Positions 31,861 through 52,703 of a stretch of DNA of 64,000 nucleotides are shown here, one piece after another. The notes beneath the pieces were generated by a model. It made no database searches and was not told the DNA's origin. It was given only the letters and a program-made list of their open reading frames with translations. Origin of the DNA: Schmidtea polychroa (Eukaryota); contig CM097886.1 of NCBI GenBank assembly GCA_044892525.1, positions 120,032,001-120,096,000 on the forward strand, in the 5' to 3' direction. Both the position numbers and the translations under genes were made by a program. The stretch's first letter is position 1. Every line of letters begins with the position of its first letter.

Positions 31861-32437
31861 AGATCACAACAAAGATCACAACAAGATCACAATCAGTTTT
31901 GAATAATAACGGTTTGTCCATTTCAACATCATACGATAATGCTATCATTGAACAACCTAATGGTCGCATCTCAGCCGATTGGGTATAGAGCTGATTAATA
32001 TCCGCAATACAACGACATATTATATCACAAGGCATTTCATATCCAATTTTAGATTTAAATCGAGCTGCTTCCACTTGTGCACGACATACTTGAGATCGAC
32101 AATCAGGGATCATAGCAGTCATAACACCTCCAGTACTTTCAGTAATATTAAACGAGTCTTGATCGGTAACATCATACACAACAATAATTCCATGAGCTCC
32201 TCTGTAATAAGACGAGGTTATAGTTCTAAATCTTTCTTGACCTGCTGTATCCCATATTTGCAATTTTATAGTTTTACCATCTAATTCAATAGTTCTGATT
32301 TTAAAGTCAACCCAATTGTGCTTATATGAGTGTTCAGTATGAGTATCATCTGCAAATCTGAGTAATAAACAAGATTTTCCAACACCAGAATCTCCAATTA
32401 ATAGAAACTTGAATAAATAGTCATACTCTATATCCAT
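31826..32437 (-). CDS. RAB1/PSMA6: Chimeric ORF: Rab1 N-terminal half fused in frame to an internal segment of proteasome subunit alpha type-6, ending in LTR sequence
   Basis: aa 1-97 are Rab1 ([76 protein letters not shown]). aa ~96-182 are PSMA6 ([44 protein letters not shown]). No introns in the CDS. Confidence 0.9.
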
Positions 32438-33176
32438 TTAATTATTGTCAACGTTCCGGTTTCGATAAACAGATAAACAATTATAATCGTACAAAAAATA
32501 ACAAATCGCAAATTCCAAACTTCAAAATTTCACAATTCCAGAACAAAATTCCAATTTCTTGCCTCAGACAAACAACTCTAAATTTCCACAAAATTAATAT
32601 AATAATCACAATTTAAAAATAAAAACCTACTTCTTGCGTCTGTGTGCGCACACCAACAATATTCGATCAAATCATACCGCGCACACAGACGCGAAACAAA
32701 AGGAAACGTCAAACAAACTGCCAGTCAGAGGTGAGTGACATTCCCCCTCTGACTGGTCGAAACAGATGCTTTTCAAGGTATTAATATGAGTCTTATTAGA
32801 ACTGTCACAACTGGGGTATCAAAATTATATGATGACCAGTTTCTATTTTTCGCACATGGCTGTTGTAGGGTACTTGCATTTACATAGGCAAAGTAACGAT
32901 CAAAACGCTAATTACCTTTACTACAACTTTATTATCGTTCATCCTCAAATTTATAAATAACTATTCACTTAACTACTATCAAATTTGTTTGATGTATTAT
33001 AACTATAACTATTATAACTATATAGGCAATAGCTTCCTGTTTGTAATCAGCACAATAAATAATTATTTTTACGTTTGACTAGTTTTCGTTTAATTTTTGT
33101 TCTATTTCGTTTCCAATAATATTAATGTAAATTATCGTCCTACTACTATTTGAAATATGAATTTTTATACTAAATG

Positions 33177-34269
33177 TGTTAGGTTCGATGGGTAGGTAGT
33201 CGAACTAACACAAAAAATGTTCTATCTGACTCCAATAAATAATTTAGGCGTATAGGTAATAAATAAGAAATATGATTTACAATATTTATTAATGATAAAA
33301 ATTACACGATTGTTTATTTGTACAAATTATTCACGCTGCTCTCTGAAGAAAAGAAAACGGTTAATCAAACCGCCCTGAAGAATATTTCTACGAATCAAGG
33401 CTGGCCCTAAATGCGCCAACAGCCCGATATAAGTGAAAGGAAAAAGATAGGGAAACTCACCAAATTTTACGCGATAGAGTCAACCCAGAAATTGGTTAAC
33501 TCTTTAAATTATATTTGACACGAAACAGCTACAAAAAATATGTGCTGACGTTGCAATCCCCTTTTATATTAATTTAAATAAATGAAAATATTTATATGTA
33601 TATATATTTCAAATCAAAAATACTAACTAATTGATTATTCCAACAAGGGTAAGATAAACCACAGATTGGTTGTCGAACTGGCTACTAATATTTCTTCCTT
33701 TTACTTTAATTAATACTCCAATAGGTATTGGAGTTACGATATTATATAGATGATGCGAAAAATCCTGATAAAAATATCCTTTGGTTCCGAAGAATTTCGT
33801 GATAAATATAATTCCAGTAATTAATTTCTTGATCGATATTCCTATGGAAATTTCTTGATCCAATAGACAAAATGAAATTTCCCAAAATTTTAGGTTAAAT
33901 TCTAAATGTCAAGAATGCCGAATTAAAATGATCTGATCGTATCTATTTATAACTATGGGGATTCTCTTCTGATTTTTCTTGTCTCTAATTTCTTATCCTC
34001 CTGTAATCTAATTTTTAACTAGTATTTATATAAATTTTATTTCCATAATTCTATTAATAGTAATTGTTTAATTACTATTTTTATTATATTTTTTAAATAA
34101 TTTCTATAGTTCTATTTTTAGTAATTATTTATTACTAATTATATTTTAGTTTTAATTTTAGTATTTAATTTCTATTTTCGGTAATTTTTTATTACTATTT
34201 TTGTTATACTTCTAATTAATTATTATTTAATTTCGAATCTTCAATTCCGGTTCCTACTGAACCCCAACA
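33177..34269 (-). mobile_element. 3' LTR of the large Gypsy-like element (1093 bp)
   Basis: TGTT...AACA termini, AATG on the outer flank, and an adjacent PPT. Near-identical to 51611-52703. Confidence 0.9.
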
Positions 34270-34281
34270 AGTCTTCCCCCT
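34270..34281 (-). promoter_or_regulatory. Polypurine tract
   Basis: Minus strand reads AGGGGGAAGACT immediately before the LTR's TG. Confidence 0.8.
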
Positions 34282-34571
34282 AACAAGATTTTCGTCCCGA
34301 AAATTAAAGCGGTAAAGATAAGACAATTGCAGCCAATACATAAAATTAAAAAAAATATAAAAATAAAATAAAACAACTGAATAAAATGTATATACATAAA
34401 GTAATCAAAGTCAAACTCAGAGATGGTTAAACAAAATTAAAAATCAGATTTATCAAATGTTGTTCATAATGTCTATCAATTTGAATATCTGGATTGGATT
34501 GAGTTGTCGAAGGTGTTGGGATTGAGGACGTATAGCAAATTGCTAGGTCCATTGAACACATAGCCGAATTG

Positions 34572-36209
34572 CTAGTATTTTCTCCTTTTCATGACCTTGG
34601 CACTTTCGTTACGGATCCTTTGTTCTACAATGTCAGGTCTGTAACTGACCACCAAAGTCTCCCGTGTACTTACCTCTTTGTACACAATTGAGGAGATAAT
34701 GTACGAGCCCTCATTAGCCTCCAATACTCCGTAGTCGGGGAAATTGGATACGGCTACTTCATGGATTGGGCCTCCGTCGTATTCCGTGATACGCGGTTTC
34801 CATTTGCTGTCGGGTCTCTGCCACCAACTAGGATCTTCCCTGTCGAGGTCTTCCCGTATTTTGATTGAATTGCCCCTTCCGACGAACTCGCCTTCCTTTA
34901 CGATAATAGGTTCTCCTGAAATCGTGGGTTCACTCTTTGTTGCCAATATCTTGGTCAACGCAGGATCTGGTGGCTGATAGTGGGTTTCTAGGAGATCGTC
35001 ATCCTCATCTTGGATGGATATCCTAGGCATCTTCTTTTTCGTGCTCTTAGGAATCTCCGTTTTCCTCTTTGTAGAGGTAGGAACATTTTTCTCCTTGTCC
35101 TCTTTCTGGGGGGGTTTCTCCGTTGGTTTCTTTTTAAACTTCAAGTCTTGTAGCTTGAGTAATGGTGCCACAGCTTGGGGTAATGTTCCCCCTTCAGCTC
35201 CTTGTTTGGGTTCACCCAACGGGGCCAATGCTTTCAGGATCTTGGTGACCCGTTCAACTAACTTTTCTGCTGGCTGGGGTTTTTCTACTTCCATTTTAGC
35301 CGAATTCACCACTCTACCGTCATTGGTAAGGGTGACTTGGCGGCAGTTATCGTCTGCACTCTCACAAGTGGCATAGTCGTCTTCATCAGCAATTGAAATG
35401 GCTGGCGGCGACAAGGAATCTTCTTCCACTATTTTCAACAACTTCGTCCTGGGGATATCTTCTTTCACATAGCTCTCCATAGCTAGTGGTTTTTGCCTGC
35501 TTGAGGTACCGGGTTCCATCTGCTTGATTTGTGAAGACACCACCTCTTTCCGGGTGTCCGGTGAAATGTCGTCGACCCAGATGTCTCGTAGGTTATCGTA
35601 AATCTCCTTGATGGTAGTTACATCATTCTCCGTTTGAAGATCCGAGAAATGATGTGCTTCTTTACCGGTGACTGCCTTTGCCAAATATGCCAAACGATAA
35701 TACCCGTTGCATTTCTTTAGGTCCCTACTTTCGAGACATTTAGCTGCGCCTAGCTCACGGATTCCGAGAGCGCGCTGCATTGGGAATCTAATAACTTCTA
35801 GTAGGTCCTTTACTAGCAATCCCACGATGATTTTCCCATCGCAGATTTTCCTGATTCGTTCGGCACAGTCTTCTCCGTCGAACTGTCCTATTATTTCTTT
35901 CTCGGTCATACCATGCGCATGCGATTGGTAATGTTTGACCTGTGCTCTGGGGGTGACTCTCGTGTTGAGTATCAGATCGCCATTGAAATGTGAGATTGAA
36001 ATGGCCACGATTGCCGGTTTCAGGAATTGTCGTAGTGTAGCGTAGTGAGCTGCTACGAAAATGGTGAGGTTATCCTCTTGTCTAGGGTCCAGACGCTGTC
36101 TGACGAAAGACTTAAATGTTTTGATGTCGTTATCGTTGACATTATATGTCCAGTTTGGGTCATTAACCCATCTTGTTTGTGCTTCTCTGTGAGGTTCCAG
36201 GATTTCCAT
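34572..36209 (-). CDS. Accessory ORF (545 aa): DEDDh/REX4-like exonuclease-fold domain with degenerate active site, long charged linker, C-terminal domain ending KRRKY
   Basis: AISISHFNGDLILNTRVTP..QVKHYQSHAHGMT, GKIIVGLLVKDL, RLAYLAKAVTGKE and ENDVTTIKEIY parallel REX4/ISG20 motifs (ARVSIVN.G..LYD.YVKP..VTDYRT..SGI; GRILVGH..NDL; SL..LA...LG; EDA.A.M.LY). The ExoI position reads FVAAHY rather than DxE. Confidence 0.65.
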   Translation of the reverse strand: MEILEPHREAQTRWVNDPNWTYNVNDNDIKTFKSFVRQRLDPRQEDNLTIFVAAHYATLRQFLKPAIVAISISHFNGDLILNTRVTPRAQVKHYQSHAHGMTEKEIIGQFDGEDCAERIRKICDGKIIVGLLVKDLLEVIRFPMQRALGIRELGAAKCLESRDLKKCNGYYRLAYLAKAVTGKEAHHFSDLQTENDVTTIKEIYDNLRDIWVDDISPDTRKEVVSSQIKQMEPGTSSRQKPLAMESYVKEDIPRTKLLKIVEEDSLSPPAISIADEDDYATCESADDNCRQVTLTNDGRVVNSAKMEVEKPQPAEKLVERVTKILKALAPLGEPKQGAEGGTLPQAVAPLLKLQDLKFKKKPTEKPPQKEDKEKNVPTSTKRKTEIPKSTKKKMPRISIQDEDDDLLETHYQPPDPALTKILATKSEPTISGEPIIVKEGEFVGRGNSIKIREDLDREDPSWWQRPDSKWKPRITEYDGGPIHEVAVSNFPDYGVLEANEGSYIISSIVYKEVSTRETLVVSYRPDIVEQRIRNESAKVMKRRKY

Positions 36210-36278
36210 TGCTATGATGGTATCTATACCTTCACATAACAGTGATATGTTCTTTTCCCTTCCGTCCCGGTTTTCTAT

Positions 36279-36734
36279 TTAGAGGGTAGTGTGCTTTTGT
36301 AGCAAAATAGGGTTCGTGGCGCCAGGAACATAAACCGTAATTGGTTTGTTAATGGCGTGTATCCACAGGTGGTTGGTCAGACTATGTCTACCAAACTCAG
36401 GCATGACCTCGGTAAGCCTAATACTACCGTTATGCTTACCCGGGATTCTGGAGATAATCATTTGACGCTTTGGAGCCTCGTCAAATTTGAAATTATTGGG
36501 TATACCTGAACAATGACCGTAAAACCAGTGCCTTTGTCCTTTTCTACCTAGCTCCATAACCTGCTTCTCCAGGTTCTTGTAAATGAGTTTTTCTTTTAGT
36601 AAGGTTGTAGCACGTATAATGCTATGCCTTCCTTGGTATTGGGATATTGGATGGCTCTGCATTCCTGAAATAAAAATCATTAACCATAATATCAGATATA
36701 CTGATATGCCATAATAGGCTAAAAAGATATGCAT
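36279..36734 (-). CDS. Accessory ORF (151 aa), probably secreted
   Basis: ATG start, hydrophobic N-terminus (IFLAYYGISVYLILWLMIFISG), intact frame, same strand as the element. Confidence 0.6.
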   Translation of the reverse strand: MHIFLAYYGISVYLILWLMIFISGMQSHPISQYQGRHSIIRATTLLKEKLIYKNLEKQVMELGRKGQRHWFYGHCSGIPNNFKFDEAPKRQMIISRIPGKHNGSIRLTEVMPEFGRHSLTNHLWIHAINKPITVYVPGATNPILLQKHTTL

Positions 36735-36860
36735 AAGTCTTATAATAAAAGATCTACATATGCTGAATTTTAATGCTACCTGGAGCTCTACGTAAATATA
36801 GATTTTAAGATATATATAAATATTTATATATGATTTTTCCCTCGGGGGAGTCTGTAATTG

Positions 36861-37490
36861 TCATAATTGCGACATCAGTACTCCATCGTAAGCTCTTATG
36901 GCTTGTCTAAAATATAGCTTGGTCCAAATACCCATAGCTATCAGTGTAGTTACCAGCGATAGTACGGCCGATACCGTAATCCATACCCCTACGGGTATTT
37001 TCAGGATATATCCTGCATTAAAGTTTGTGATGGCATTACAATCACAACAGTTTGTCATGTTTGGGGGCGTTTGACAAGATATTTGTTTAATGGGTGACAA
37101 CTGTTTAAGATGTTGCCACATTGCGGGATGTATCACCATGTTCTCCCTGACTACTTTTGGTGGTTTTTCCGTTACAACTGGCTGTTTCAGAGGTAATATC
37201 TCCTCAAATACCTCGAACCACCTATCGTCTTCCCGTTTCCTCGGACTATAGTATATAACTAGAACCGAATATTCTACTGACTGATTTAGATACGTTTCTT
37301 GGGAGGGAGAGTTCTGGTCTAACCATAATGTTCTTCTCGTGGTTGATCCGTTTAGAATGCTGATTTTCACTTTTTCCTCCCTGTTAATTTGCTGGCAAAT
37401 TTTACTTTCTCCTTCTCGTAGGATATCGATATGCGGTTTGTGAAATCTGCCGTCCGTAGGATCCAATTTGATACGTGATAGGTATACCAA
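36861..37490 (-). CDS. ORF overlapping the pol end in the -1 frame: beta-rich ectodomain plus C-terminal TM
   Basis: TM VGVWITVSAVLSLVTTLIAMGIW near the C-terminus, with N-x-S/T sequons (NGS, NQS, NMT). It has no ATG start of its own at the overlap. Confidence 0.7.
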   Translation of the reverse strand: MVYLSRIKLDPTDGRFHKPHIDILREGESKICQQINREEKVKISILNGSTTRRTLWLDQNSPSQETYLNQSVEYSVLVIYYSPRKREDDRWFEVFEEILPLKQPVVTEKPPKVVRENMVIHPAMWQHLKQLSPIKQISCQTPPNMTNCCDCNAITNFNAGYILKIPVGVWITVSAVLSLVTTLIAMGIWTKLYFRQAIRAYDGVLMSQL

Positions 37491-40400
37491 CCATTCCGAT
37501 ATAACCTTGATGCTGCGACATGCAGTTTATAATCCGTCTCGGCTTTTAAGTCATATAAATCCCACTCTTTTTCTTCTGAATCGGGTTGGCGGATCCGCAA
37601 GTACTTGTTGTAGAAATGTAAATTGAATTTTGTGGCATTATCGCATGTTGTGAGTATGCTAATTCCGTGATACGTTCTTATAAAATGTAAGTGTTCCACT
37701 TGCATAGCCATAGGCTGAAAATATGCCTTTCTATCCCTTTTTGCCATTGCTAAAGTCATCATACAGCTTATTATCAGCAAAAAGGTTACCGATTTTGGAA
37801 CACCCCGTGATCTCAATGGGTATCGGTGTTCTTGTGGTTCTTCGGTAGTGTTTGGTTTCACTTGTTTCTCTGGTGCTTTTAGATTTCCAGAGGTTCCCTT
37901 TGTTGAGATTTCGCACTTTTTACACCGATTAGCATGCACCATTATTGGTTCTGCTTTTCTGTTGGCTACAAGTTGTAATATGAGATTTGTGTCTGTGGTT
38001 CTCAATACCTCGTATGGCCCTTTGAAATTTCGCATGAGTTTTGGTGATAAGCCTTTCTTGTTATAATGACTTTCCAACATCACCTGGTCTCCAACCAATA
38101 TGCCATGATCCTTGGCTTTTCGGTCATGATAATCTTTGGATGCCTCCTGATTATATTTTATACTGAGACCTGCTCTAGCCCATGCTTCCTGCATTCTTTC
38201 CCTCATTTCCATTAGATAATCTTCCTGATCTAAATACTGTGTTGCTTTAGGGAAAAACAACAGATCTACTGGCATTTTACTTTGCCTTAGGTACATTAGG
38301 TAAAATGGCGTTTCACCTGTTCCTTCGTGTACTGCATTCCTGTATGCAAATAAACAGGATGGAATGTGGATGTCCCAATCCGTTTGCCCTGAATTTACAT
38401 ATGATGCTAACATATTAGCTAATGTTCCATTAAATCGCTCTACTAGCCCATCCGTCTGTGGGTGATATGGGGAAGTGTTCAACTTTAGAACTCCGAAATA
38501 ATCATTTATTCCTTTGAGCAAATTACTCATGAAATCAGCTCCTCGATCTGTTAATAGCTTCGTAGGTACTCCATACCTAAAGACAATTTGTTCAACGAAA
38601 ATTCTAGCTATTGTATCAGCTTTGTGATTAGGCATCGGGTAGGCTTCTGGCCACTTAGTCAAGTAATCGCAGAACACTAATATGTACTTGTTTCCGCTAT
38701 TAGATTCTTTGAATGGCCCCAACACGTCCATTGCCGTCATTTCCATTGGTGTAGATGGTACTGGCATCGGCTTCATCGGTACGTGTGGTTTCTTTCCGGT
38801 ATTTCTTCTGGTGATACAGATCTTACATGTCTGACACCAGGTTTTAACATCTTGTTTCATACCGGGCCAAAAATATTTTTGTTTTAACCTCGACAATGTT
38901 TTTCTAGATGACAGGTGGCCTCCTAAGGCTCCATCGTGATACTGCAACATGAGTGCTTCACGGTATTTCTTAGGAACCATTATAACGTTATCTCGTATAT
39001 CTGAATATTTAACTAATCCCTCTTCCAGCACAAATTTATCTTTATTCTTTTCCCAGTATTTCGTGAATTCTGTGGGCACGTATTTCGCTTCTAAGGCTTG
39101 TCGGATGGCATTGATTTCTTCATCAGCTTTTTGTGCCTCCATTAAATCAGCTAGCCGGTTGGCTTCTCGAGTCAGTGTGAAGATAGTCCCTTCGAGACGT
39201 CCTTCCTTCACATCTTCTGCTTCCTCCTCCTGGTCCATTCTCGATAAAGCATCTGCATTACCATTATGATCTCCCTTTCTATAATGGATTTCTATGTCAT
39301 ATGGCTGTAAAATTAATGCCCATCTGACCAGTTTTGATGTATCCATTGTGTGTTTCGTCAGCCACTGTAATTGTCTATGATCGGTATACACTATGATCTT
39401 TCGACCCCATAGATAGGTCCTAAACTGGGTTATAGCATATACAATTGCTAAAGCCTCTAGTTCTATCACTGCGTAGTTTCTCTCGTGTGGTTTTAACCCT
39501 CTGCTAGCGTATGCAATTGCATACTCGTCTCCTAGGTCATCTCTCTGACCTAACACAGCACCTATGCCCCGAGTGCTGGCATCTGTCATAACCAAAAATT
39601 GTCTCTCAAAATCTGGGAATCGCAATATAGGTGGCTTGATGAGTCTTTCCTTGAGCCTATCAAATGCTTCTTGCTGTTCTGTTCCCCACACAAATTTGAC
39701 ATTTTTGCCTTCTAACTGCGTGAGTGGGAAAGCTATAACCGAAAAGTTTCTAATGAATTTTCTGTAGTATCCAACTAGACCTAAAAACCCTTTGATATGT
39801 TTAACGGTTTTAGGCTCCGGAAAATTCTTAACCTTTTCAACATTAGCTGGATCGGGTTTAACCCCGTCTCGTGATATGATATGGCCAACATATACCACTT
39901 CTGGTTCAGCCCATTTACATTTGGTTGGTTTAACTTTCATGTTGGCATTGATCAACCTCTTGAACACATCTTCCAAATGTTCCAAGTGTTTTTCCAAATT
40001 TGGCGAGAATACTATGACGTCGTCAATGTATACCATCGCATGATGTACATCCATGAGCATCAAATTCATTGCTCTTTGAAATGTGGCTGGAGCTCCGGTG
40101 AGTCCAAATGGCATTACGTTATATTCGTAATGGCCCATACTCGTAGAAAATGCTGTTATTGGTATAGTCTCATCTTTTAGCTTAATTTGATAAAATCTCT
40201 TTCGGGCGTCCATTACTGAGAAGAACCTAGTGTTTCTCATGCGTCCATAGATATAATCTAACAATGGCAATGGATGGCTATCTTTGCATGTTGCTTCGTT
40301 AACCATGCGATAGTCGTTACATAATCGTACTGATCCATCCTTCTTGGCCACCACTATCATTGGTGATTGATATGGTGATTTACTATGTCTGATTATGCCA

Positions 40401-43400
40401 TGTTTTAACATCAATTTCACCTGTTTATCAACTGATTCCTCCAGACTGAAAGGAATACGGTATGGTCTCAACTTTATAGGTTTTGTATTGGTGAGAACAA
40501 TCTCATGTTCTAACAGGTTTGTTTTTCCCAGATCGTATTCATGTTTCGCGAATACCTGGTCATATTTCCTCAACAGCATATTTACTTGAATGTTTTCCTT
40601 TCTGGTTAGCACTTTGCTATTTGCTGTAGGAGCATCATAGTACTCAATGTCTGGATCTCTTTCTTCTGCCTTTACGGTGAGTATCGACCCTTCTCTCGTG
40701 GCTTGTGGTTCGTTTTGTTTCCAGATTCTGCCCACTCTGGTATCTGGATATAAGTACAGTGGTTTAATGTCCAAATTGGCTACCTTGATTGGTATTCTGC
40801 CATTGACTATTAAACCTACGCTATGCGTAACTGGTATATTGTATTTCTCCGAAAATCTTTCGTCTGGTTCAAATACAACTTCCCCTTCCCAATTATTGCT
40901 TGTAGCTACAAAGCATACTGTTTCTGCTCTGGGTGGTATGATAGTTGTATGATCTATATAAGCTGTATCATCGTTGTAAATTTTTCTCTTTTTACCTCGT
41001 GCTCGGATTAACAATCCAGATGCACAATCGAATACTACTCCTCGTAGTCTTTTTAGAACGTCCATACCCAATAGACATTCGGCTGGGAGGCTTCTCATCA
41101 CTATGATGTCGTGATGGAGCTCCTGGTCACATAGCTTAATCTGGCAGGATAATGACCCTATTACGTTTAATGATGATCCGTTTGCTCCTGTTAATTTTAC
41201 TCCTGCCGGTTTTAGCGACTGCAGTTCATGATGGTTTAACAATTTAGCTTCTATTATGGTACCATCTGCTCCTGAGTCTATCACCGCATTAACTGTATGT
41301 CGGTTCACTCTTATTTTTATCATTGGCTTTTTATCCAAATTCACTGGGTTATTGACCATCAAGATAGAATCGTGCGAGATACCGATTGTATTGGCTCTCG
41401 TTTGTTCTGCTTCCAGTAATTCAGGATCACTCAGTTGAGGATTATACTCTTTAAATTTAGCTTTAATTGATTCTAACGCTTCCTTTGGATAGTGCACTTT
41501 AGGTAATTCTGGCAATGTTGAACATGTCAGATTATTAAATATGGTATCTTCACCGATTTTCCATTGGTGTCGTCCTGTTCTGAGTGTTGTTTCCTTTGAG
41601 TGTTCCCGCCTCTCGTTTGGTGCGGATGGTAAACTCCTCAAAGTTGGCAATTGTACATATCTTGGACTTTTCTTGAATCTGGGTGACCTTATGTCGAATT
41701 TTTGGTCGGAACTGTTATATTCTCCTTCTGGGGACTGTTTTCTCACATAGATTTCCTTTGATTGGTCATACGGAGGAAGATATTCCTTAAATCTCGATTT
41801 TCTTTGTTGCTGATTCGGTTTTTTGTTGTAGTTCTGTTTTCGTGATTGATTTGATCTTGAAGATGTTTCACGAGAGCCTCCATTACCTCCTTCCTTTGAA
41901 TTGTTATCGTCTTGATAACTAGAATACTCCTCCATTTCTGTTCCAATTACTTCATGTTTGACCAAATGTTTCTGTCTAATTTCTTTAATTTCCTTTCTGT
42001 GATGTTTGAATAATGCAAACTCTGCACACATGGGACATAGTCCTAATAGCAGTTTCCATGACCATCCCCCAATTTTGAATATGCTATAAGTTGACATCAG
42101 TTGTGTAATTATCAGCTTTAAAATTACAAATATTGCGTAAATTCCTGAACATCCCGCGACGAAAATACCAAAATTGGTGAATCGTCCCCATATTTTCATC
42201 ATTACGTTCTTTGCTGCTTCTTTATAGTGTTCCGGTCCAAATAATAGATTGTAATCTGGTCGTATTAAGCTATCATGATAAATTGTTCTTATAATTTCCG
42301 TGATACCTCTATCTCTGATTTGTGGGAATAGCAATGTCCTTCTTGCTTCCTCGATATCGTCGGGAGTATAGATCCCTCCTTTTGCTAATTCGTCTAATGA
42401 CTTGAATTCCATATTATCTTTTAATTTAGTTACCTCCAAGGTCTCTACTTGTCGTGTAGATGGTTTTCTTTCTGGAAGAGATATCCACATGTCATTTATT
42501 TTGTATAATGGTGATATTGCCGGGTTGCATATAGCTGGTTGAGGTTTAGCGTTTTCCTCAAGTAACTTTCTGGTTACTGGCATAACAAATCTCAAATTTC
42601 CTTGGTAAGATACTGGCAGTTCTAGAGTGCATTGATTAAATCTGGCTAATTGTACTTCAACTGGTTTACACTCATAGCTATATATAGCTTCTCCCAAGAT
42701 CCTACCAAACATTCCATCTTCCAATAACATTGGAGTAACCAACTCTGTGTTAACAATAGATATTGCTAATCTATTTCGGACTATTTCACGATTTAGCTTG
42801 CAATCATTTAGTATCACCTCTTGATACATATCTTGCATTTGTCCTTGCAGATCATGGTATAGATAATCTACTTTATTATTTATATAATTCGTGATTTTGA
42901 TATCCTTTACATGTAGGACCTTGGAATTCCGAATATATTCTCTTGACAGAAAGATTCCTTTGTAGTTCGTCTCGTATACTCTTTTCCCACATTTAGTCTT
43001 TTTATCTTTTCGGACGAATCGAATTGCTTCCGTCTTGTCTTCCGATATCAATAATAGAGGTGTGTTTTCCTCTCCAATATCTTCCTTCTCTTGTTTGTTG
43101 ATTTTCTTCAACGTTTTTGCTTTATCCCAAACCTTTTCTGGATTCTGAGAATCCCGATATTTAGTTCCATTTAGTTTTCTAAAAGGAATCTTCTTGAGAA
43201 AAGCCAACTCACAATGATCTCTCATTTGTTCGTAAATTAATGTAGTGGTTCCCGTTTTACAACTACCGAACTTGGCATTGCATTGCGGATGTGCCATCAA
43301 TTTTCCTGTGGCCACATCGAATGTTCCCTCGTATTCTCGTAGCTCTACTGAGTAATCTTCTATGTCTACCACATAGGAAACTAAATTGCTACCGCGAATT

Positions 43401-43513
43401 TTCTTTCTTCCTTCGCAGGTTCCATCTGAGGCAATTGTTCCTCCTCGAGTGATTGTTATTCCCAATGTTTTCCCAATTTCTGCTGAGATTGATACCTCGT
43501 TGTCTATCCTCAC
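37367..43513 (-). CDS. 2048-codon polyprotein frame: chuvirus-like glycoprotein, protease, RT, RNase H, integrase, then a signal-like helix and FN3-like extension
   Basis: PR IDSGAD...LLGMD; RT PYRIP, DYR..N, MPFGL, YIDD; RNaseH TDAS, ELE..AI, TDH, ADALSR; IN H-x6-H...CxxC, MDVLGP, LTDRG, VERFN, GPY. Glycoprotein motifs include GEAIY..CKPVEV, C..ELPV and GGIYT. Confidence 0.95.
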   Translation of the reverse strand: MRIDNEVSISAEIGKTLGITITRGGTIASDGTCEGRKKIRGSNLVSYVVDIEDYSVELREYEGTFDVATGKLMAHPQCNAKFGSCKTGTTTLIYEQMRDHCELAFLKKIPFRKLNGTKYRDSQNPEKVWDKAKTLKKINKQEKEDIGEENTPLLLISEDKTEAIRFVRKDKKTKCGKRVYETNYKGIFLSREYIRNSKVLHVKDIKITNYINNKVDYLYHDLQGQMQDMYQEVILNDCKLNREIVRNRLAISIVNTELVTPMLLEDGMFGRILGEAIYSYECKPVEVQLARFNQCTLELPVSYQGNLRFVMPVTRKLLEENAKPQPAICNPAISPLYKINDMWISLPERKPSTRQVETLEVTKLKDNMEFKSLDELAKGGIYTPDDIEEARRTLLFPQIRDRGITEIIRTIYHDSLIRPDYNLLFGPEHYKEAAKNVMMKIWGRFTNFGIFVAGCSGIYAIFVILKLIITQLMSTYSIFKIGGWSWKLLLGLCPMCAEFALFKHHRKEIKEIRQKHLVKHEVIGTEMEEYSSYQDDNNSKEGGNGGSRETSSRSNQSRKQNYNKKPNQQQRKSRFKEYLPPYDQSKEIYVRKQSPEGEYNSSDQKFDIRSPRFKKSPRYVQLPTLRSLPSAPNERREHSKETTLRTGRHQWKIGEDTIFNNLTCSTLPELPKVHYPKEALESIKAKFKEYNPQLSDPELLEAEQTRANTIGISHDSILMVNNPVNLDKKPMIKIRVNRHTVNAVIDSGADGTIIEAKLLNHHELQSLKPAGVKLTGANGSSLNVIGSLSCQIKLCDQELHHDIIVMRSLPAECLLGMDVLKRLRGVVFDCASGLLIRARGKKRKIYNDDTAYIDHTTIIPPRAETVCFVATSNNWEGEVVFEPDERFSEKYNIPVTHSVGLIVNGRIPIKVANLDIKPLYLYPDTRVGRIWKQNEPQATREGSILTVKAEERDPDIEYYDAPTANSKVLTRKENIQVNMLLRKYDQVFAKHEYDLGKTNLLEHEIVLTNTKPIKLRPYRIPFSLEESVDKQVKLMLKHGIIRHSKSPYQSPMIVVAKKDGSVRLCNDYRMVNEATCKDSHPLPLLDYIYGRMRNTRFFSVMDARKRFYQIKLKDETIPITAFSTSMGHYEYNVMPFGLTGAPATFQRAMNLMLMDVHHAMVYIDDVIVFSPNLEKHLEHLEDVFKRLINANMKVKPTKCKWAEPEVVYVGHIISRDGVKPDPANVEKVKNFPEPKTVKHIKGFLGLVGYYRKFIRNFSVIAFPLTQLEGKNVKFVWGTEQQEAFDRLKERLIKPPILRFPDFERQFLVMTDASTRGIGAVLGQRDDLGDEYAIAYASRGLKPHERNYAVIELEALAIVYAITQFRTYLWGRKIIVYTDHRQLQWLTKHTMDTSKLVRWALILQPYDIEIHYRKGDHNGNADALSRMDQEEEAEDVKEGRLEGTIFTLTREANRLADLMEAQKADEEINAIRQALEAKYVPTEFTKYWEKNKDKFVLEEGLVKYSDIRDNVIMVPKKYREALMLQYHDGALGGHLSSRKTLSRLKQKYFWPGMKQDVKTWCQTCKICITRRNTGKKPHVPMKPMPVPSTPMEMTAMDVLGPFKESNSGNKYILVFCDYLTKWPEAYPMPNHKADTIARIFVEQIVFRYGVPTKLLTDRGADFMSNLLKGINDYFGVLKLNTSPYHPQTDGLVERFNGTLANMLASYVNSGQTDWDIHIPSCLFAYRNAVHEGTGETPFYLMYLRQSKMPVDLLFFPKATQYLDQEDYLMEMRERMQEAWARAGLSIKYNQEASKDYHDRKAKDHGILVGDQVMLESHYNKKGLSPKLMRNFKGPYEVLRTTDTNLILQLVANRKAEPIMVHANRCKKCEISTKGTSGNLKAPEKQVKPNTTEEPQEHRYPLRSRGVPKSVTFLLIISCMMTLAMAKRDRKAYFQPMAMQVEHLHFIRTYHGISILTTCDNATKFNLHFYNKYLRIRQPDSEEKEWDLYDLKAETDYKLHVAASRLYRNGWYTYHVSNWILRTADFTNRISISYEKEKVKFASKLTGRKK

Positions 43514-43533
43514 ACTTCCTTTTCGAAATGCAT

Positions 43534-45720
43534 CTAAGCAATCTTTATGTTTACCGGCCTTGGTATTAATGTCGCGGATAGAAAAGCAGAATAGCTATTA
43601 CTACCGCAATAATATTCGAATGTAGCTCTCTGAACTCTACATTCCTTTATCGTAGTTCTATAGAATTCACTTTCTTGGTAGACATAATATTCTACCTTTT
43701 CCCCTTGCTGGACCTTCTCGGGATACGCCTCTTTGCACTCAATTGCATCTACTAGCGAATATACCCGAGATAGTTTAGGGTTTCCACAATCAAATACCGT
43801 TAATGAGTTTGTTTGTTTTAATATGCCCATCATTACTAGGAACATCAGGATCATGCTTGTCATGTTTCCTGTGCCTGAACTAACATTATTTATGGCTTCT
43901 TCCACGACTTCATATCGTGGTTTTGGAATCGTTTCCTTTTCCCAAAATTTGTTTACGGTCATCCATACCTCCAGGTAATAATCTATCATTTCGACTATTT
44001 GATCGATTTCTCGTTCTATAAGCCTTTTATCATCCCCTACTCGGGCTAAGGCATTTTGAATTAACAATGATAGTGATGTTAACACTTTCCCTCTTGTTAA
44101 TCCTTGCTGTACGAATGCTTCTATGGTATCCTGAATATCTCCTGTTGATACATCTTTGGATATTCTATCCATTGTCTTTTTGACTTCCTTTGTTATCTTC
44201 TTAACTTCGATCCCCTTGATTTTTGGAATTCTCCATTCGGGCCTGATAATCCCGATCATTTGTTGTATACGTTGCCACAATAACGACCTTTCTGACGTTG
44301 TCTCGTCTCCCGCCTGGTCGTCCATTTCTTGGGCTATCCCTGCTAATGTTTTTAACTGAATTTTCCGAATCGTTTCCGGATTTAACTGCTCCTTGGGTGG
44401 AGGTTTCATTTGATCCTTTCTAGGACGTCCTCGTCCATCTTTTTTCACTTTCTCCGGAGGTTTTCCAGTCTCCGGGTTTGTTATAGCTTGTGACGTAGTA
44501 GCTCCTACGTTTGTTTCTCCTGGATTTAACCTGACGTACTCTGAGAAGTAATCTTCCTCGTCAATGTCCACCATTTGACAGGGATTAATTTCCTCTAGCC
44601 TTATTTCCTCAATCTCTTCCACAATTTCGTTTGCCATATCTGGCAGTCTCATTAATGACCACTGGGACTCCGGTGGAGTTACTGGGATGATCATTACCGT
44701 GGTTGTTACCAACGGTAGACAACCCACATCCACTAGATACTCATCATCATCAACTTGCCTACCATGAACCATTATCAGGAATATACCTGTAGTTTGATCG
44801 GTGGCAATCTCATCTCTCCTCAATATTTTGACCTTAATATAACAATTATAAATCATTGTTAATGGTTCTTTTCCCATCATTCGCACGTCTAGATTAATGT
44901 TGCCTTGTCTATCAGGCTGACTTCGGATAGCTTTCCCATTTTTCCTCATCAGCGCTTCGATTTGCGTCTGGAATGGGCTTGTTTCCTTTACCACTGGTAG
45001 TATAAGTGGAATTATTGCTTCCAACAAATCTACTGGTATTCGTAATACTAACATCCAGTCCAGTATTTCCTTTATAGTTTCCCCATCTCGTGGAGATTTC
45101 TGCAATTCCAACCCTAGTCGCTGGGTTAATTGTTGAGTTTCTTCCAAACTCTCTATTTCCATTTGAGTAATCAAGAATACGCTATCTTGATCCATTACTG
45201 CTACTGGCTTTTGTGCTCTCTTTGCTGTGAGCTTCGTCACTCTACCTGGGAGTATCCCGTTCTGTAGAAGTGTTTGGTTTGCTTCTAATTTTATTCCACA
45301 TAAGTATAAGTCATATCCTTGATGCTTAATACTTGTCAACGTTTCCGTTAATTTATCGGCTCGACTTCTTACATTTATATCGAGATTATACTCTCTATCC
45401 TGTGGGAGTTTTATATTGAGCTGGGCATCTTGGAGATCCCACTCATGTTCCATGAGTTTTCCTAATTTCCTTAGGATTTTGTACGTGTCGTTATGATATT
45501 TTGGATCATCTTCGACCTGCGATATCAGTTTTACTACTGTATCGATTTCATGAATTTTAATTTCTGTTTCTCCCAATTTTCCCAATTGTCTGGCCAGCTT
45601 CTGCTGGTACTCATATCTGGAATCCACCAGTTTTAAACATTTTGTTAGGGTATCTGACCCTTCTTTTACCTTTGCTTTCCCTGGCAAGGTTCTATCGAAC
45701 TCGCTTAGTATGGTGGCCAT
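43534..45720 (-). CDS. 728-aa ORF: accessory domains (death-fold-like, ubiquitin-like, AT-hook, Bcl-2-like), internal signal peptide and glycoprotein N-terminus
   Basis: ATG start and intact frame. MILMFLVMMGILKQTNS|LTVFDC followed by a Cys-rich ECRVQR..YYCGSNSYS that continues into the next ORF's glycoprotein via a -1 shift. Confidence 0.85.
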   Translation of the reverse strand: MATILSEFDRTLPGKAKVKEGSDTLTKCLKLVDSRYEYQQKLARQLGKLGETEIKIHEIDTVVKLISQVEDDPKYHNDTYKILRKLGKLMEHEWDLQDAQLNIKLPQDREYNLDINVRSRADKLTETLTSIKHQGYDLYLCGIKLEANQTLLQNGILPGRVTKLTAKRAQKPVAVMDQDSVFLITQMEIESLEETQQLTQRLGLELQKSPRDGETIKEILDWMLVLRIPVDLLEAIIPLILPVVKETSPFQTQIEALMRKNGKAIRSQPDRQGNINLDVRMMGKEPLTMIYNCYIKVKILRRDEIATDQTTGIFLIMVHGRQVDDDEYLVDVGCLPLVTTTVMIIPVTPPESQWSLMRLPDMANEIVEEIEEIRLEEINPCQMVDIDEEDYFSEYVRLNPGETNVGATTSQAITNPETGKPPEKVKKDGRGRPRKDQMKPPPKEQLNPETIRKIQLKTLAGIAQEMDDQAGDETTSERSLLWQRIQQMIGIIRPEWRIPKIKGIEVKKITKEVKKTMDRISKDVSTGDIQDTIEAFVQQGLTRGKVLTSLSLLIQNALARVGDDKRLIEREIDQIVEMIDYYLEVWMTVNKFWEKETIPKPRYEVVEEAINNVSSGTGNMTSMILMFLVMMGILKQTNSLTVFDCGNPKLSRVYSLVDAIECKEAYPEKVQQGEKVEYYVYQESEFYRTTIKECRVQRATFEYYCGSNSYSAFLSATLIPRPVNIKIA

Positions 45721-45917: not shown

Positions 45918-46234
45918 CTAGTTAACCATAAAAGTTGTCTTAGGCTTGTTCACATTACCCTTATCGGTATTTTTATTGAACTGACCCGTATTTCCACTCT
46001 GATTCTGAGGACATGACCTCATCATATGTCCGAATTTCCCACATCCGTGACATTTTATCTTTCCTGATGAATTTACATCATCTCTTTTAATTGTACTAAA
46101 ATTATTGCTGTTCTGAGGGCTTCTAGTCTTGCAGACTGCAGCCACATGTCCCTTACGTTTACATTTTTCGCATTGCAAATTCTGCACTCTACAATTTTCC
46201 GCACCGTGGTTATTCCGTCCACATTTGGTACATT
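45918..46234 (-). CDS. gag: C-terminal fragment of Gag with three CCHC zinc knuckles
   Basis: CTKCGRNNHGAENC, CEKCKRKGHVAAVC and CHGCGKFGHMMRSC (each Cx2Cx4Hx4C), with TAG at 45918-45920. Sequence beyond 46234 is Merlin-derived. Confidence 0.9.
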
Positions 46235-47394
46235 GCATTTTTATCCTGCCAGTACCGAACCGTAAAGCCGAAACCATTGCGGCCATATTTATTGGAAATA
46301 TACACCCTGGATCAATTGTCATTACAGATCAGTGGCATTCTTATGGAAGAGTATGTCGAGAATTAAATGTATTCATGCACCAAACCGTTAACCATTCTGT
46401 CAACTTCGTTGATCCATGCGACCCAACAATCCATACTCAAAACATTGAGGGACTATGGTCACGTTCAAAATACTTTATTCGAAAAAAAGAGGCGTTTCAA
46501 GTGAGATTCAATCGGAATATTTAGTACAATTTATTTGGGAATACAACATTGCAAAAAATAAGAGATTTAATGATTTGTTGATCTTATTAAACCATTCTTG
46601 ATTCACGGATAAAAAATTATGGATTTTATTTAATTTTTGTATAAGCAAATATTTTTTTAATTGCAGTGTTTTTAATTTTATAATTAAGTTATATTGATTT
46701 ATTAATTTAATTTATTACTTTATTTTTTAACATAGTAAATTACCATTAACATAGTGAAACTACCATCTACCATATTTTCTTATCAATTCCTTAAATCCTT
46801 TACTGTAAACTCCCCATAAACACTAAATTCCTGTATTGTTGTGCAAATCCATTAAGAAATTAATTCGAATCTGAAATATAAACTCCAAATCTTTTAAACC
46901 AATTTATTAGCATAAAATATTTTCCTGAAAACCCATTAATAAAACAAAGATTCACAAAATTTCAAAAGAAAATCAATTGAAGGCAAAACATATAATACCC
47001 TTCAACACAGAAGTAAAAAAATTATTTAGGCACATAATGAAAGTGTTAGGTTTGCAAGTTGGTTAGAGTACTAACACACTCACTCGATCTGACTCCAAGG
47101 ATATATGTAAGATAAATCAGAACAACAACTCGACTTTTATATAAAACTATTTATTGATATGAAAGATAAATACAAAATATGGATTTAATTAGAAAGTTTA
47201 AAATAACAATAAAACGTGTTGCCCAAAAAAGTTGTTGCAAATAAGCAGAAAATAGATTTAGGTTAAACAAACCTTCCTAAGATATTTCTAAGGCGACGAA
47301 TACAGGATTCTAATTAATAGACAACACCGCTCAACAATATAAGAGGGTTGCCCGAAATTTACTGCGATCGATTAGTAATCAGAAATTGGTAGTA
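46235..47394 (+). repeat. Third, partial copy of 30637-31796 (Merlin 3' half ending at 46771, flank, LTR fragment)
   Basis: Near-identical at offset 15598, with a few private substitutions (e.g. TGGCATTC vs TGGCGTTC). Confidence 0.95.
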
Positions 47395-48369
47395 GTATTT
47401 AAAACAAGAATTCATCCGAAAACTAAAACTGCTTCATATTAAAAGTCCCAAAAATAAGTGAAACTGACATTTCAAATCATATGTAGGGAAAACTTTTTTT
47501 TTGTTACTTGTTTAAATATTTGGTAAAAATTTCATTAAAAAATCTGTTCATTTTCTGTACTGATTTTCAAAGCAAACTAATTGATGTGGAATAATTCAAT
47601 ATGAGAAGAAATCATTGAAGTGAAAAAGATTTTAAGAAAATTTCAGTATCAGTAATTAATTAGGAAAATTTTTACACTTTGAATTTGTAATGGGATAAAT
47701 CTTTTGTATTCCTTTGAACATCCTTGATTTTCAAATTCTTGAATAAGTATGATGGAACTTTGATAATTTACCCTTTTGAGCCGCATATCTTTATTGTCAT
47801 TTACCCCCCAACATCTCTTGTTGCAAAGGGAGCTTTTAGTATCAGAATAATTTAATTTGATATAGATTAAGCGCTAAACATAAATTAAAATCATAAAATT
47901 TTACCTATAAAATTTGATTCTGAAACACGAGGTACAAAAATTCATGGTAAAAAATTGTAAATGATTTGAGAGGGAAGACTCCATTGAAGAACCCCTCCCC
48001 GTGTCGTTAAATGTCTAGTTGGAGTTATTATTTTCAAATTGACGCATATTAATGAAAAATACTTGATTAAGAAAATAACAGCAAAAGTTTTACTTGAAAA
48101 TTAGGACAAAATTTTGACTTTCAAAAAGATTTTACCCTTCAAATTTGCATTATTAGACAATAGAAATCCCTATTTAAACAAAAACCATTTTGAAAATAAA
48201 GGGTAAGTAATTTAAAAAAAGTGTTGGATGATCTGATCTAAAATTATTACATCTTTTTCATAATTATTCATTTTTATTTCTGATCAATTGATAATTTGTA
48301 CAATTAATTTATTAATATAAATATACAACTCTTTAAATACATATGCCAATAGGAATCATTAATATTTTC

Positions 48370-49607
48370 GGTAAATAGTAGATTTACTATGTTAATGGTA
48401 ATTTACTATGTTAAAAAATAAAGTAATAAATTAAATTAATAAATCAATATAAATTAATTATAAATTTACAAAAATTAGCACATCCATGCCAAAACAAACA
48501 CAATTCTTTATAATTCCGAAGCAGTCAATTCTTTCAGACGACGAAGTACGTGCCATAAATATTAACGAAAACTATCTCGACAATGTGTTTCTTGATCATA
48601 CCAATACAAATGAATTTTTAGCCTGCTTTGGTCTGATACAGAATTTTAAACTGTGTAAACGATGCGAAAACCGGCATTTACGGTATGTTAAAAATATGAA
48701 TTATGTGGATGGTTATCACTGGTTATCAGACATGTCGATATCAGGAATCTATTCGTGCAAACTCTTTCATTGTGAAAAGTAAGATGAACACAAAAAACTT
48801 TTTATCGTTATATGAAAGGGGAAGAATTACAAGACATTAGTTATGAATTGAATATTGAAAGACATACCGTTTCGAGTTAGGTTTCGTTGCTTCGTGAGGC
48901 AATGATATATTATTTATCAGCAAATTTTAGTATTCTGGGCGGAGTTGGTAATAATGGACAATCAAAAATTGTTGAGGTTGACGAGACTTTATTCTTCCGG
49001 TGAAAATATAATCGAGGACAGATGTTGAATCAGCGATGGTATATCGGGGGTATTGAACGTGGGACAAGAAGCATTTTTATCCTGCCAGTACCGAACCGTA
49101 AAGCCGAAACCATTGCGGCCATATTTATTGGAAATATACACCCTGGATCAATTGTCATTACAGATCAGTGGCGTTCTTATGGAAGAGTATGTCGAGAATT
49201 AAATGTATTCATGCACCAAACCGTTAACCATTCTGTCAACTTCGTTGATCCATGCGACCCAACAATCCATACTCAAAACATTGAGGGACTATGGTCACGT
49301 TCAAAATACTTTATTCGAAAAAAAGAGGCGTTTCAAGTGAGATTCAATCGGAATATTTAGTACAATTTATTTGGGAATACAACATTGCAAAAAATAAGAG
49401 ATTTAATGATTTGTTGATCTTATTAAACCATTCTTGATTCACGGATAAAAAATTATGGATTTTATTTAATTTTTGTATAAGCAAATATTTTTTTAATTGC
49501 AGTGTTTTTAATTTTATAATTAAGTTATATTGATTTATTAATTTAATTTATTACTTTATTTTTTAACATAGTAAATTACCATTAACATAGTGAAACTACC
49601 ATCTACC
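48370..49607 (+). mobile_element. Merlin transposon, duplicate copy
   Basis: Same TIRs, ATATTTTC TSD and broken transposase as 29936-31173. Confidence 0.92.
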
Positions 49608-50259
49608 ATATTTTCTTATCAATTCCTTAAATCCTTTACTGTAAACTCCCCATAAACACTAAATTCCTGTATTGTTGTGCAAATCCATTAAGAAATTAAT
49701 TCGAATCTGAAATATAAACTCCAAATCTTTTAAACCAATTTATTAGCATAAAATATTTTCCTGAAAACCCATTAATAAAACAAAGATTCACAAAATTTCA
49801 AAAGAAAATCAATTGAAGGCAAAACATATAATACCCTGCAACACAGAAGTAAAAAAATTATTTAGGCACATAATGAAAGTGTTAGGTTTGCAAGTTGGTT
49901 AGAGTACTAACACACTCACTCGATCTGACTCCAAGGATATATGTAAGATAAATCAGAACAACAACTCGACTTTTATATAAAACTATTTATTGATATGAAA
50001 GATAAATACAAAATATGGATTTGATTAGAAAGTTTAAAATAACAATAAAACGTGTTGCCCAAAAAAGTTGTTGCAAATAAGCAGAAAATAGATTTAGGTT
50101 AAACAAACCTTCCTAAGATATTTCTAAGGCGACGAATACAGGATTCTAATTAATAGACAACACCGCTCAACAATATAAGAGGGTTGCCCGAAATTTACTG
50201 CGATCGATTAGTAATCAGAAATTGGTAGTAAAGTTATCCTAGATTCCTTACCCTATTCC

Positions 50260-50871
50260 CTACATCAGATCAGAACCATGATTAAATTTAATAAAGATCA
50301 CAACAAAGATCACAACAAGATCACAATCAGTTTTGAATAATAACGGTTTGTCCATTTCAACATCATACGATAATGCTATCATTGAACAACCTAATGGTCG
50401 CATCTCAGCCGATTGGGTATAGAGCTGATTAATATCCGCAATACAACGACATATTATATCACAAGGCATTTCATATCCAATTTTAGATTTAAATCGAGCT
50501 GCTTCCACTTGTGCACGACATACTTGAGATCGACAATCAGGGATCATAGCAGTCATAACACCTCCAGTACTTTCAGTAATATTAAACGAGTCTTGATCGG
50601 TAACATCATACACAACAATAATTCCATGAGCTCCTCTGTAATAAGACGAGGTTATAGTTCTAAATCTTTCTTGACCTGCTGTATCCCATATTTGCAATTT
50701 TATAGTTTTACCATCTAATTCAATAGTTCTGATTTTAAAGTCAACCCAATTGTGCTTATATGAGTGTTCAGTATGAGTATCATCTGCAAATCTGAGTAAT
50801 AAACAAGATTTTCCAACACCAGAATCTCCAATTAATAGAAACTTGAATAAATAGTCATACTCTATATCCAT
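50260..50871 (-). CDS. RAB1/PSMA6: Second copy of the Rab1::PSMA6 chimeric ORF
   Basis: Translation identical to 31826-32437. Confidence 0.9.
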
Positions 50872-51610
50872 TTAATTATTGTCAACGTTCCGGTTTCGAT
50901 AAACAGATAAACAATTATAATCGTACAAAAAATAACAAATCGCAAATTCCAAACTTCAAAATTTCACAATTCCAGAACAAAATTCCAATTTCTTGCCTCA
51001 GACAAACAACTCTAAATTTCCACAAAATTAATATAATAATCACAATTTAAAAATAAAAACCTACTTCTTGCGTCTGTGTGCGCACACCAACAATATTCGA
51101 TCAAATCATACCGCGCACACAGACGCGAAACAAAAGGAAACGTCAAACAAACTGCCAGTCAGAGGTGAGTGACATTCCCCCTCTGACTGGTCGAAACAGA
51201 TGCTTTTCAAGGTATTAATATGAGTCTTACTAGAACTGTCACAACTGGAGTATCAAAATTATATGATGACCAGTTTCTATTTTTCGCACATGGCTGTTGT
51301 AGGGTACTTGCATTTACATAGGCAAAGTAACGATCAAAACGCTAATTACCTTTACTACAACTTTATTATCGTTCATCCTCAAATTTATAAATAACTATTC
51401 ACTTAACTACTATCAAATTTGTTTGATGTATTATAACTATAACTATTATAACTATATAGGCAATAGCTTCCTGTTTGTAATCAGCACAATAAATAATTAT
51501 TTTTACGTTTGACTAGTTTTCGTTTAATTTTTGTTCTATTTCGTTTCCAATAATATTAATGTAAATTATCGTCCTACTACTGTTTGAAATATGAATTTTT
51601 ATACTAAATG

Positions 51611-52703
51611 TGTTAGGTTCGATGGGTAGGTAGTCGAACTAACACAAAAAATGTTCTATCTGACTCCAATAAATAATTTAGGCGTATAGGTAATAAATAA
51701 GAAATATGATTTACAATATTTATTAATGATAAAAATTACACGATTGTTTATTTGTACAAATTATTCACGCTGCTCTCTGAAGAAAAGAAAACGGTTATTC
51801 AAACCGCCCTGAAGAATATTTCTACGAATCAAGGCTGGCCCTAAATGCGCCAACAGCCCGATATAAGTGAAAGGAAAAAGATAGGGAAACTCACCAAATT
51901 TTACGCGATAGAGTCAACCCAGAAATTGGTTAACTCTTTAAATTATATTTGACACGAAACAGCTACAAAAAATATGTGCTGACGTTGCAATCCCCTTTTA
52001 TATTAATTTAAATAAATGAAAATATTTATATGTATATATATTTCAAATCAAAAATACTAACTAATTGATTATTCCAACAAGGGCAAGATAAACCACAGAT
52101 TGGTTGTCGAACTGGCTACTAATATTTCTTCCTTTTACTTTAATTAATACTCCAATAGGTATTGGAGTTACGATATTATATAGATGATGCGAAAAATCCT
52201 GATAAAACTATCCTTTGGTTCCGAAGAATTTCGTGATAAATATAATTCCAGTAATTAATTTCTTGATCGATATTCCTATGGAAATTTCTTGATCCAATAG
52301 ACAAAATGAAATTTCCCAAAATTTTAGGTTAAATTCTAAATGTCAAGAATGCCGAATTAAAATGATCTGATCGTATCTATTTATAACTATGGGGATTCTC
52401 TTCTGATTTTTCTTGTCTCTAATTTCTTATCCTCCTGTAATCTAATTTTTAACTAGTATTTATATAAATTTTATTTCCATAATTCTATTAATAGTAATTG
52501 TTTAATTACTATTTTTATTATATTTTTTAAATAATTTCTATAGTTCTATTTTTAATAATTATTTATTACTAATTATATTTTAGTTTTAATTTTAGTATTT
52601 AATTTCTATTTTCGGTAATTTTTTATTACTATTTTTGTTATACTTCTAATTAATTATTATTTAATTTCGAACCTTCAATTCCGGTTCCTACTGAACCCCA
52701 ACA
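51611..52703 (-). mobile_element. Solo LTR with 4-bp TSD
   Basis: AATG|TGTT...AACA|AATG, with neither a PPT nor a PBS adjacent. Confidence 0.88.

Follow-up and report, generated by a model that had tools for sequence, protein, structure and literature searches.

Can the envelope protein of a retroelement be made as one chain with the rest of its proteins and, if so, how would such a chain be laid across membranes? The question is raised by a stretch of 64,000 nucleotides (contig CM097886.1 of assembly GCA_044892525.1, positions 120,032,001 to 120,096,000; hereafter the window), whose minus strand carries, from 46235 to 33177, a retroelement in which a viral-type fusion glycoprotein is followed in frame by Pol. 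The original prediction, made from these letters, described a type I membrane protein with the whole of Pol as its cytosolic tail. The other copies and related families point to a wider arrangement, a single frame of Gag, cargo, a glycoprotein of the herpesvirus gB type, Pol and a second module flanked by hydrophobic segments, which probably yields one polyprotein crossing the endoplasmic reticulum (ER) membrane four times.

The window element is a decayed copy from a recently active family

The element in the window is a decayed copy of a multicopy, compact Burro-like element of the Ty3/gypsy type, and a dead member of a recently active family. A search of its own genome at the DNA level gave 40 scored matches among 640 candidates, namely the window and 39 others at 96-97% identity. 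The open reading frame (ORF) is unbroken in 4 of the 69 scored family copies, where it measures 3,366-3,369 aa and runs through the Gag capsid, four CCHC knuckles, about 685 aa of cargo, an internal signal, the glycoprotein, its anchor, a linker, protease (PR), reverse transcriptase (RT), RNase H and integrase (IN), and then through a second signal, an ectodomain and an anchor to the stop. The order PR-RT-RNase H-IN, as given by Pfam, is that of Ty3/gypsy. The sibling element is 14.9 kb long; the long terminal repeats (LTRs) of a pair are 97-99.7% identical in all six siblings examined with their flanks, and TG..CA LTR termini, primer-binding site, polypurine tract and 4-bp target duplications are clear in four of the six.

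The window copy is truncated at its 5' end at 46235 and lacks the first 1,862 element bases (its alignment to a full sibling begins at element base 1863), with capsid, leader and 5' LTR gone and only the 3' LTR kept. It has five private breaks, one of them inside the glycoprotein, which may be real mutations or assembly errors. A 5.3-kb block comprising host flank and 3' LTR is duplicated at 99.8% (28962-34270 and 47396-52704), and a 1.16-kb piece is present three times, including 30637-31796 and 46235-47394; at 46235 the 5' end of the element is replaced by part of that repeat, through local rearrangement or as an assembly artefact.

Surveys of 30 copies revealed no lesion common to more than three of them. 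The glycoprotein is unbroken in 15 of the 30 fetched copies and the linker between its anchor and the protease is open in 29; among the 30 fetched for the 5' end, 24 have an open junction between Gag and cargo, and the breaks in the rest are not shared. For the comparison of non-synonymous and synonymous polymorphism (pN/pS, by simple site counts uncorrected for transitions), variants shared by at least three copies were taken to represent replicating lineages. Their pN/pS was 0.01 (RT), 0.02 (glycoprotein), 0.09 (linker) and 0.11 (cargo), against 0.31-0.59 for singleton variants; it was 0.14 in the post-integrase ectodomain and 0.04 in the exonuclease region described below. Given this low ratio among shared relative to singleton variants, selection kept both the glycoprotein and its fusion to Pol during the spread of the family.

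A gB-type glycoprotein lies in one frame with Pol

All the glycoprotein motifs on which the original prediction was built are present on the minus strand. The frame 43594-37367 (2,075 aa) holds the glycoprotein body, its anchor (42172-42101), the linker (about 230-275 aa), the DSGA protease (41278), RT, RNase H and integrase with no stop, so the predicted passage from glycoprotein into protease is borne out, and the open linker and purifying selection make it a feature of the family. Most of the motifs do share a frame with Pol, but in the window copy the signal, LTVFDC, YYCGSNSYS and the first 100 or so glycoprotein residues are found in another frame (45771-43534). A programmed frameshift inside the glycoprotein was considered and ruled out, since the break near 43540 is private to the window copy (1 of 30). 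The hydrophobic signal expected ahead of the glycoprotein is also there, yet far from being N-terminal: about 1,030 residues precede it in an ORF that starts with Gag. A hydrophobic segment followed by [AGVT][YF]DC was seen in 13 of the 15 relatives scanned, the other two lacking this end.

Profile searches identify the glycoprotein as chuvirus-type (Monjiviricetes, gB-like), in agreement with the earlier reading. PF24664 (Monjiviricetes_fusion) matches frame 43594-37367 with E 1.4e-69, frame 45771-43534 with E 1.7e-9 and the unbroken sibling with E 3e-88. A profile of 87 glycoproteins gave 34 PDB matches, of which 33 were herpesvirus gB (weak matches covering the central part, best E 0.009), while the single glycoprotein sequence gave no meaningful match in PDB. 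A FastTree, rooted at its midpoint, was built from the C-terminal half of the glycoprotein, which was present in 128 of 157 sequences. All 18 long glycoprotein-bearing sequences fell in one 21-tip clade (support 0.90), apart from stand-alone homologues of about 650 aa, which are about 22-28% identical. An exogenous chuvirus, or an insertion derived from one, would be expected to carry this protein in an ORF of its own outside a gypsy polyprotein; because the glycoprotein is here part of the ORF of a retroelement and groups with glycoproteins from other polyproteins, neither description fits its sequence context.

The same layout is shared by four more compact families of the genome, with frames of 3,053-3,437 aa in the three seen unbroken and the fourth seen only broken, and by a 35-kb Burro-type element whose 4,791-aa frame also has MATH and ankyrin domains. 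Glycoprotein identity between the window family and these five is 34-44%, Gag is in frame in all families examined, and database searches returned further glycoprotein-Pol polyproteins. In three related database polyproteins two to four protease-like motifs stand behind the glycoprotein.

A second, predicted membrane module lies behind the integrase

A second module of signal, ectodomain and anchor follows the integrase in all ten lineages whose frame extends that far, that is, in the five compact families, the Burro-type element (where the signal, seen by eye, lies behind the ankyrin repeats) and four database proteins; a database protein ending inside the integrase was left out. The ectodomain diverges fast among lineages, and that of the Burro-type element looks different.

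What this ectodomain might be is suggested by several weak signals. In Atlas, two diverged ectodomain queries pointed to FN3 (0.91 and 0.94), and all ten named matches were FN3-related, with shared-feature counts below 170. Pfam fn3 matched the ectodomain of one family with E 0.05. With a low-confidence, all-beta structural model, Foldseek placed FN3 tandems first (best E 0.006), and VIA placed fibronectin first (Z 7.3, with 79 residues superposed at rmsd 2.8), level with further Ig-like sandwiches. Sequence searches with this second ectodomain retained 0 of 1,568 candidates and gave no relevant PDB match. An FN3/Ig-like fold is the likely reading of these faint model and profile signals, as a lead and not as proof.

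A post-integrase membrane protein was not found in the literature that we searched, including the text of the Burro account (PMC6431247) and of the survey of GAG-ENV-POL elements (PMC13524379), and the module appears to be a new feature of the clade. Two natural internal-deletion copies involve it: in one the post-integrase ectodomain is fused to the exonuclease of ORF2, and in the other the protease is joined straight to the module, with no RT.

The cargo between Gag and the glycoprotein

In family B the cargo gave two stretches matching Pfam ubiquitin (E 5e-5), and sister families gave matches to Pfam Bcl-2 (E 1e-6 and 7e-6), all under the curated cut-offs. A five-sequence profile that includes the window family matched Bcl-2 proteins in PDB with E 4e-4 to 4e-3, its top match being the unrelated ribosomal protein S8, and hhalign to host-type Bcl-2 ORFs gave a probability of 80. 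An idea that the cargo derives from a viral matrix protein or nucleoprotein taken up by the element was abandoned when the matches to ubiquitin and Bcl-2 emerged. A short distance separates the end of the Bcl-2-like domain from the glycoprotein signal. Cellular Bcl-2 proteins carry tail anchors and, by analogy, the Bcl-2-like domain might keep the glycoprotein signal segment as its own tail anchor after signal cleavage. Many dispersed Bcl-2 matches also occur in the genome in frames of 150-186 aa, often with one TAG inside the match; these are probably cargo of another repeat family.

The ORF1 stop and the exonuclease of ORF2

The long frame (ORF1) ends in TGA-CAATTA in 30 of 30 copies, with ORF2 directly behind in the same frame and the first 70 codons after the stop open in all 30. 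CARYYA has been described as a signal for readthrough that is effective with UGA (PMC4132726). ORF2 is likely reached either by readthrough or from a start codon of its own, and we hold the two options to be equal: a methionine stands at about its codon 43, and in none of the other families examined does ORF2 follow the stop in frame. Over the 45 codons next to the stop, four non-synonymous and two synonymous shared variants were counted. An ORF2 profile matched ISG20L2 (E 5e-12) and ISG20 (E 5e-10), and in the alignment the acidic residues of the first exonuclease motif are conserved in family C and absent from the window family. An invariant UGA-CAAUUA readthrough-type stop ahead of an ISG20-like ORF was not found in the literature that we searched and appears to be new.

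A proposed four-pass polyprotein and its alternatives

How could such a chain be organized? In the arrangement that we favour, the internal signal would anchor Gag and cargo at the cytosolic face and send the glycoprotein into the lumen, the glycoprotein anchor would return the chain to the cytosol for PR-RT-RNase H-IN, and the second signal and anchor would yield a small second surface protein. Until it is cut, Pol would thus form a loop in the cytosol with an anchor at either end. Two luminal N-termini would be freed by signal peptidase, and the protease of the element would separate the cytosolic parts at motifs on the domain borders, releasing Pol. A candidate for such sites, chosen post hoc, is T-[IT]-[FL]-[MT]-[VL], which occurs at four places: just after the nucleocapsid, again some 35 residues later, ahead of PR and where RNase H meets IN. 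Membrane tethering could then replace a matrix or myristoyl signal and gather capsid, enzymes and fusogen at an enveloped budding site. With Gag and Pol both present as membrane-tethered precursors, this would be a wider form of the tethering proposed in the original prediction. The single frame, the hydrophobic segments on either side of both ectodomains and the purifying selection are observed; from them and from the border motif we infer the four crossings, the two signal-peptidase cuts, the release by the protease and the enveloped budding.

Several observations weigh against this arrangement. Its topology is derived from hydropathy, and the first internal signal of the window family falls below the hydropathy threshold used. 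The border motif, in the form given, is not shared by families D and E or by Burro. The window family itself has no Pfam match to ubiquitin or Bcl-2 in its cargo, which is alignable across the motifs of the sister families, and it is on these sisters that both cargo assignments would depend. The fold models were of low confidence for the cargo (pLDDT 34.5) and for the all-beta post-integrase ectodomain (pLDDT 43.8). The polyprotein model is drawn from gene sequences, and equimolar Gag and Pol would be atypical, so that an unseen regulatory step may exist.

In a possible alternative, though one we hold to be less probable, the single frame is a genomic layout only and spliced or early-polyadenylated RNAs supply most of the Gag and Env, whose output is then not strictly tied to that of Pol. 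An excess of Gag is normally required for particles, as is generally known, and in one sequencing run a poly(T) loose end falls at 41994, just past the glycoprotein anchor. The coding strand is, however, rich in A at 41994, and the cargo has ends of the same sort (44204 and 45586), which fits internal priming. Among the runs listed as matching the element, none is annotated as RNA. We compared four of these runs, three probably of RNA and the fourth of unknown type, as contigs, which cannot show that splicing is absent; one of the probable RNA runs covers 30 of 30 bins, and no splice-type joint was seen in the probable RNA runs among the rows listed, over a stretch without the 5' leader. The 1:1 coupling of Env to Pol that had been proposed is incomplete as an account, for translation of the single frame would couple Gag alike.

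Whether the membrane proteins serve entry is a separate matter. It is conceivable, if rather unlikely, that the element moves only within cells and that the glycoprotein and the second membrane protein are assembly scaffolds or act in host manipulation, to which a cargo related to apoptosis and ubiquitin would point. The glycoprotein has no furin site of the form R-X-[KR]-R, but such a site is not always conserved in this type of Env, to judge from the main text of PMC13524379, and the full-length ectodomain keeps the conserved cysteines of its family and is under purifying selection at the level of RT. We regard as very improbable a fusion of Env and Pol that stands alone, with the signal at its N-terminus and Pol as a free tail as in the original prediction, and with Gag made separately. 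In the window copy a stop and a frame break do separate Gag from the rest, and a methionine precedes the signal, but these breaks are private to that copy (1 of 30); elsewhere Gag and cargo stand upstream in frame, and the second internal signal after the integrase would leave Pol no free tail. That the fusion is an accident of the window copy or of the assembly is scarcely credible in spite of the locally duplicated, rearranged block in which the copy lies, because it recurs in dozens of dispersed copies and in several diverged families.

Beyond the four-pass polyprotein itself, we tentatively put forward, as something that may well turn out otherwise, that the Burro clade consists of invertebrate retroviruses whose entry machine has two parts made from that one chain: a gB-type fusogen and, behind the integrase, a fast-evolving FN3/Ig-like protein for attachment or acting as a decoy. 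The Bcl-2-like domain would take the fusogen signal as tail anchor, and readthrough of UGA-CAAUUA would add an ISG20-like nuclease homologue. Under the four-pass model itself, capsid, enzymes and envelope would all come from one membrane-threaded chain, more as in alpha- and flaviviruses than in textbook retroviruses. Planarians, a tractable model for regeneration, have numerous young copies of such elements in their genomes, and the layout, though published, is of value there as a test case; were the post-integrase protein an attachment factor, it would offer a way to ask about passage between cells, including stem cells, and between species.

Relation to known elements

The original prediction implied that env in frame ahead of pol was new. 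The arrangement is real but already in print: the text of Arkhipova & Yushenova (2019, PMC6431247) has env in frame between gag and pol in the planarian element Burro, and credits the giant Burro/GYPSM1 elements to Grohme et al. 2018 and Jurka 2007. The weight of the present analysis falls on the undescribed post-integrase module and on a topology that can be tested. Burro as described there resembles the window family in having one ORF with Gag, CCHC knuckles, a mononegavirus-type env, PR, a dUTPase-like position, RT, RNase H and IN, and its Ubi2/SUMO-like and BCL-2-like domains ahead of env have putative counterparts in the window family. The window family is of this published kind, yet it is a compact relative that we file apart from Burro itself. 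It is about 15 kb long with 1.1-kb LTRs and about 3,350 aa, whereas the Burro-type element of the same genome measures 35 kb and has LTRs of 5 kb and a frame of 4,791 aa; the two are 34% identical over 2,312 aligned columns and 47% in RT-RNase H. The hallmark of Burro, a giant size (>30 kb) with MATH, BIR and ankyrin cargo, is not found in the window family, whose scanned regions gave no Pfam match to any of the three. For the Burro-type Env we obtained 94 scored matches with near-identical scores, many with a 4,791-aa open frame, which implies a very recent burst.

In the main text of Chary & Hayashi (2026, PMC13524379), GAG-ENV-POL elements with an HSV/gB-type Env are reported from nematodes, bryozoans and flatworms, six of them from Schmidtea mediterranea. 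The window family is like these errantiviruses in its Ty3/gypsy Pol, its gB-type Env between Gag and Pol, its many copies and its flatworm host, and is not identical to any of the six as listed there; compared by eye, 67 of the first 100 residues match the Env of Smed_errantivirus_4. The words 'polyprotein', 'Bcl', 'fibronectin' and 'accessory' are absent from that main text. For the gB-type Env fold, that survey modelled a sister element. By the same comparison the Env of family B is about 98% identical (about 245 of 251 residues) to Smed_errantivirus_2. From these matches the host is likely to be a freshwater planarian. The window family reaches only about 67% with its nearest listed element; should the host be other than S. 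mediterranea, the far closer match of family B would point to a recent passage from one planarian species to another.

The glycoproteins of the BEL/Pao element Anakin and of exogenous Chuviridae belong to the same Pfam family, PF24664 (Dezordi et al. 2020). Unlike these, the window family has a Ty3/gypsy-like Pol and a glycoprotein embedded in a polyprotein. A single-frame layout is also reportedly present in certain nematode elements. These are the nematode endogenous retroviruses of Sacco et al. 2022, as cited in the text of PMC13524379, where env stands before pol in a Metaviridae element, as in the window family, in a different host group.

Features of the window

The features of the window copy are collected in Table 1. 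The segment at 40721..40969 gave no Pfam match to dUTPase.

Table 1. Features of the element copy in the window, in order of the coding strand.
Feature	Position	Strand	Basis and remarks
Gag 3' part: three CCHC zinc knuckles (nucleocapsid)	45918..46235	-	Pfam zf-CCHC; cut off at 46235; private stop at its end (1/30)
Two ubiquitin-like segments (~45390-45220, ~44898-44680) in cargo region X, putative	44680..45390	-	aligned to family B
Bcl-2-like helical domain directly before glycoprotein signal, putative	43942..44310	-	Pfam matches of sister families, profile, hhalign
Internal signal of glycoprotein, ending just before LTVFDC	43804..43863	-	sequence; cleavage predicted
Monjiviricetes/gB-type fusion glycoprotein ectodomain	42173..43803	-	PF24664; frame broken near 43540 in window copy
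Glycoprotein membrane anchor and GWSW juxtamembrane segment	42008..42172	-	hydropathy 2.28 in sibling
Linker, in frame, ending with candidate protease site before PR	41330..42007	-	open in 29/30; motif list
Aspartic protease (DSGA)	41015..41329	-	Pfam gag-asp_proteas, E 1e-12
Segment at Burro dUTPase-like position	40721..40969	-	position only (text of PMC6431247)
RT (YIDD), RNase H, integrase	37913..40480	-	Pfam RVT_1, RT_RNaseH, Integrase_H2C2, rve
Post-integrase module	36861..37789	-	second signal 37789-37742, beta-rich ectodomain, anchor 36998-36924, stop 36861-36863; private frame break near 37400
ORF2: hydrophobic segment, then ISG20-like DEDD exonuclease domain	34572..36860	-	profile match, alignment; private stop near 36279
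Polypurine tract and 3' LTR (~1.09 kb)	33177..34290	-	comparison with siblings

Outside the element, the window has at 29936-31173 and again at 48370-49607 an inverted-repeat-bounded element with a broken transposase of Merlin/IS1595-like appearance. An intronless chimeric ORF on the minus strand (31826-32437 and 50260-50871) combines the N-terminal half of a Rab1-like GTPase (Pfam Ras, E 2e-34) with a proteasome-subunit fragment (E 3e-15) and looks like a retrocopy chimera from its sequence. An open frame of 331 codons without a Pfam match lies on the plus strand at 22949-23944.

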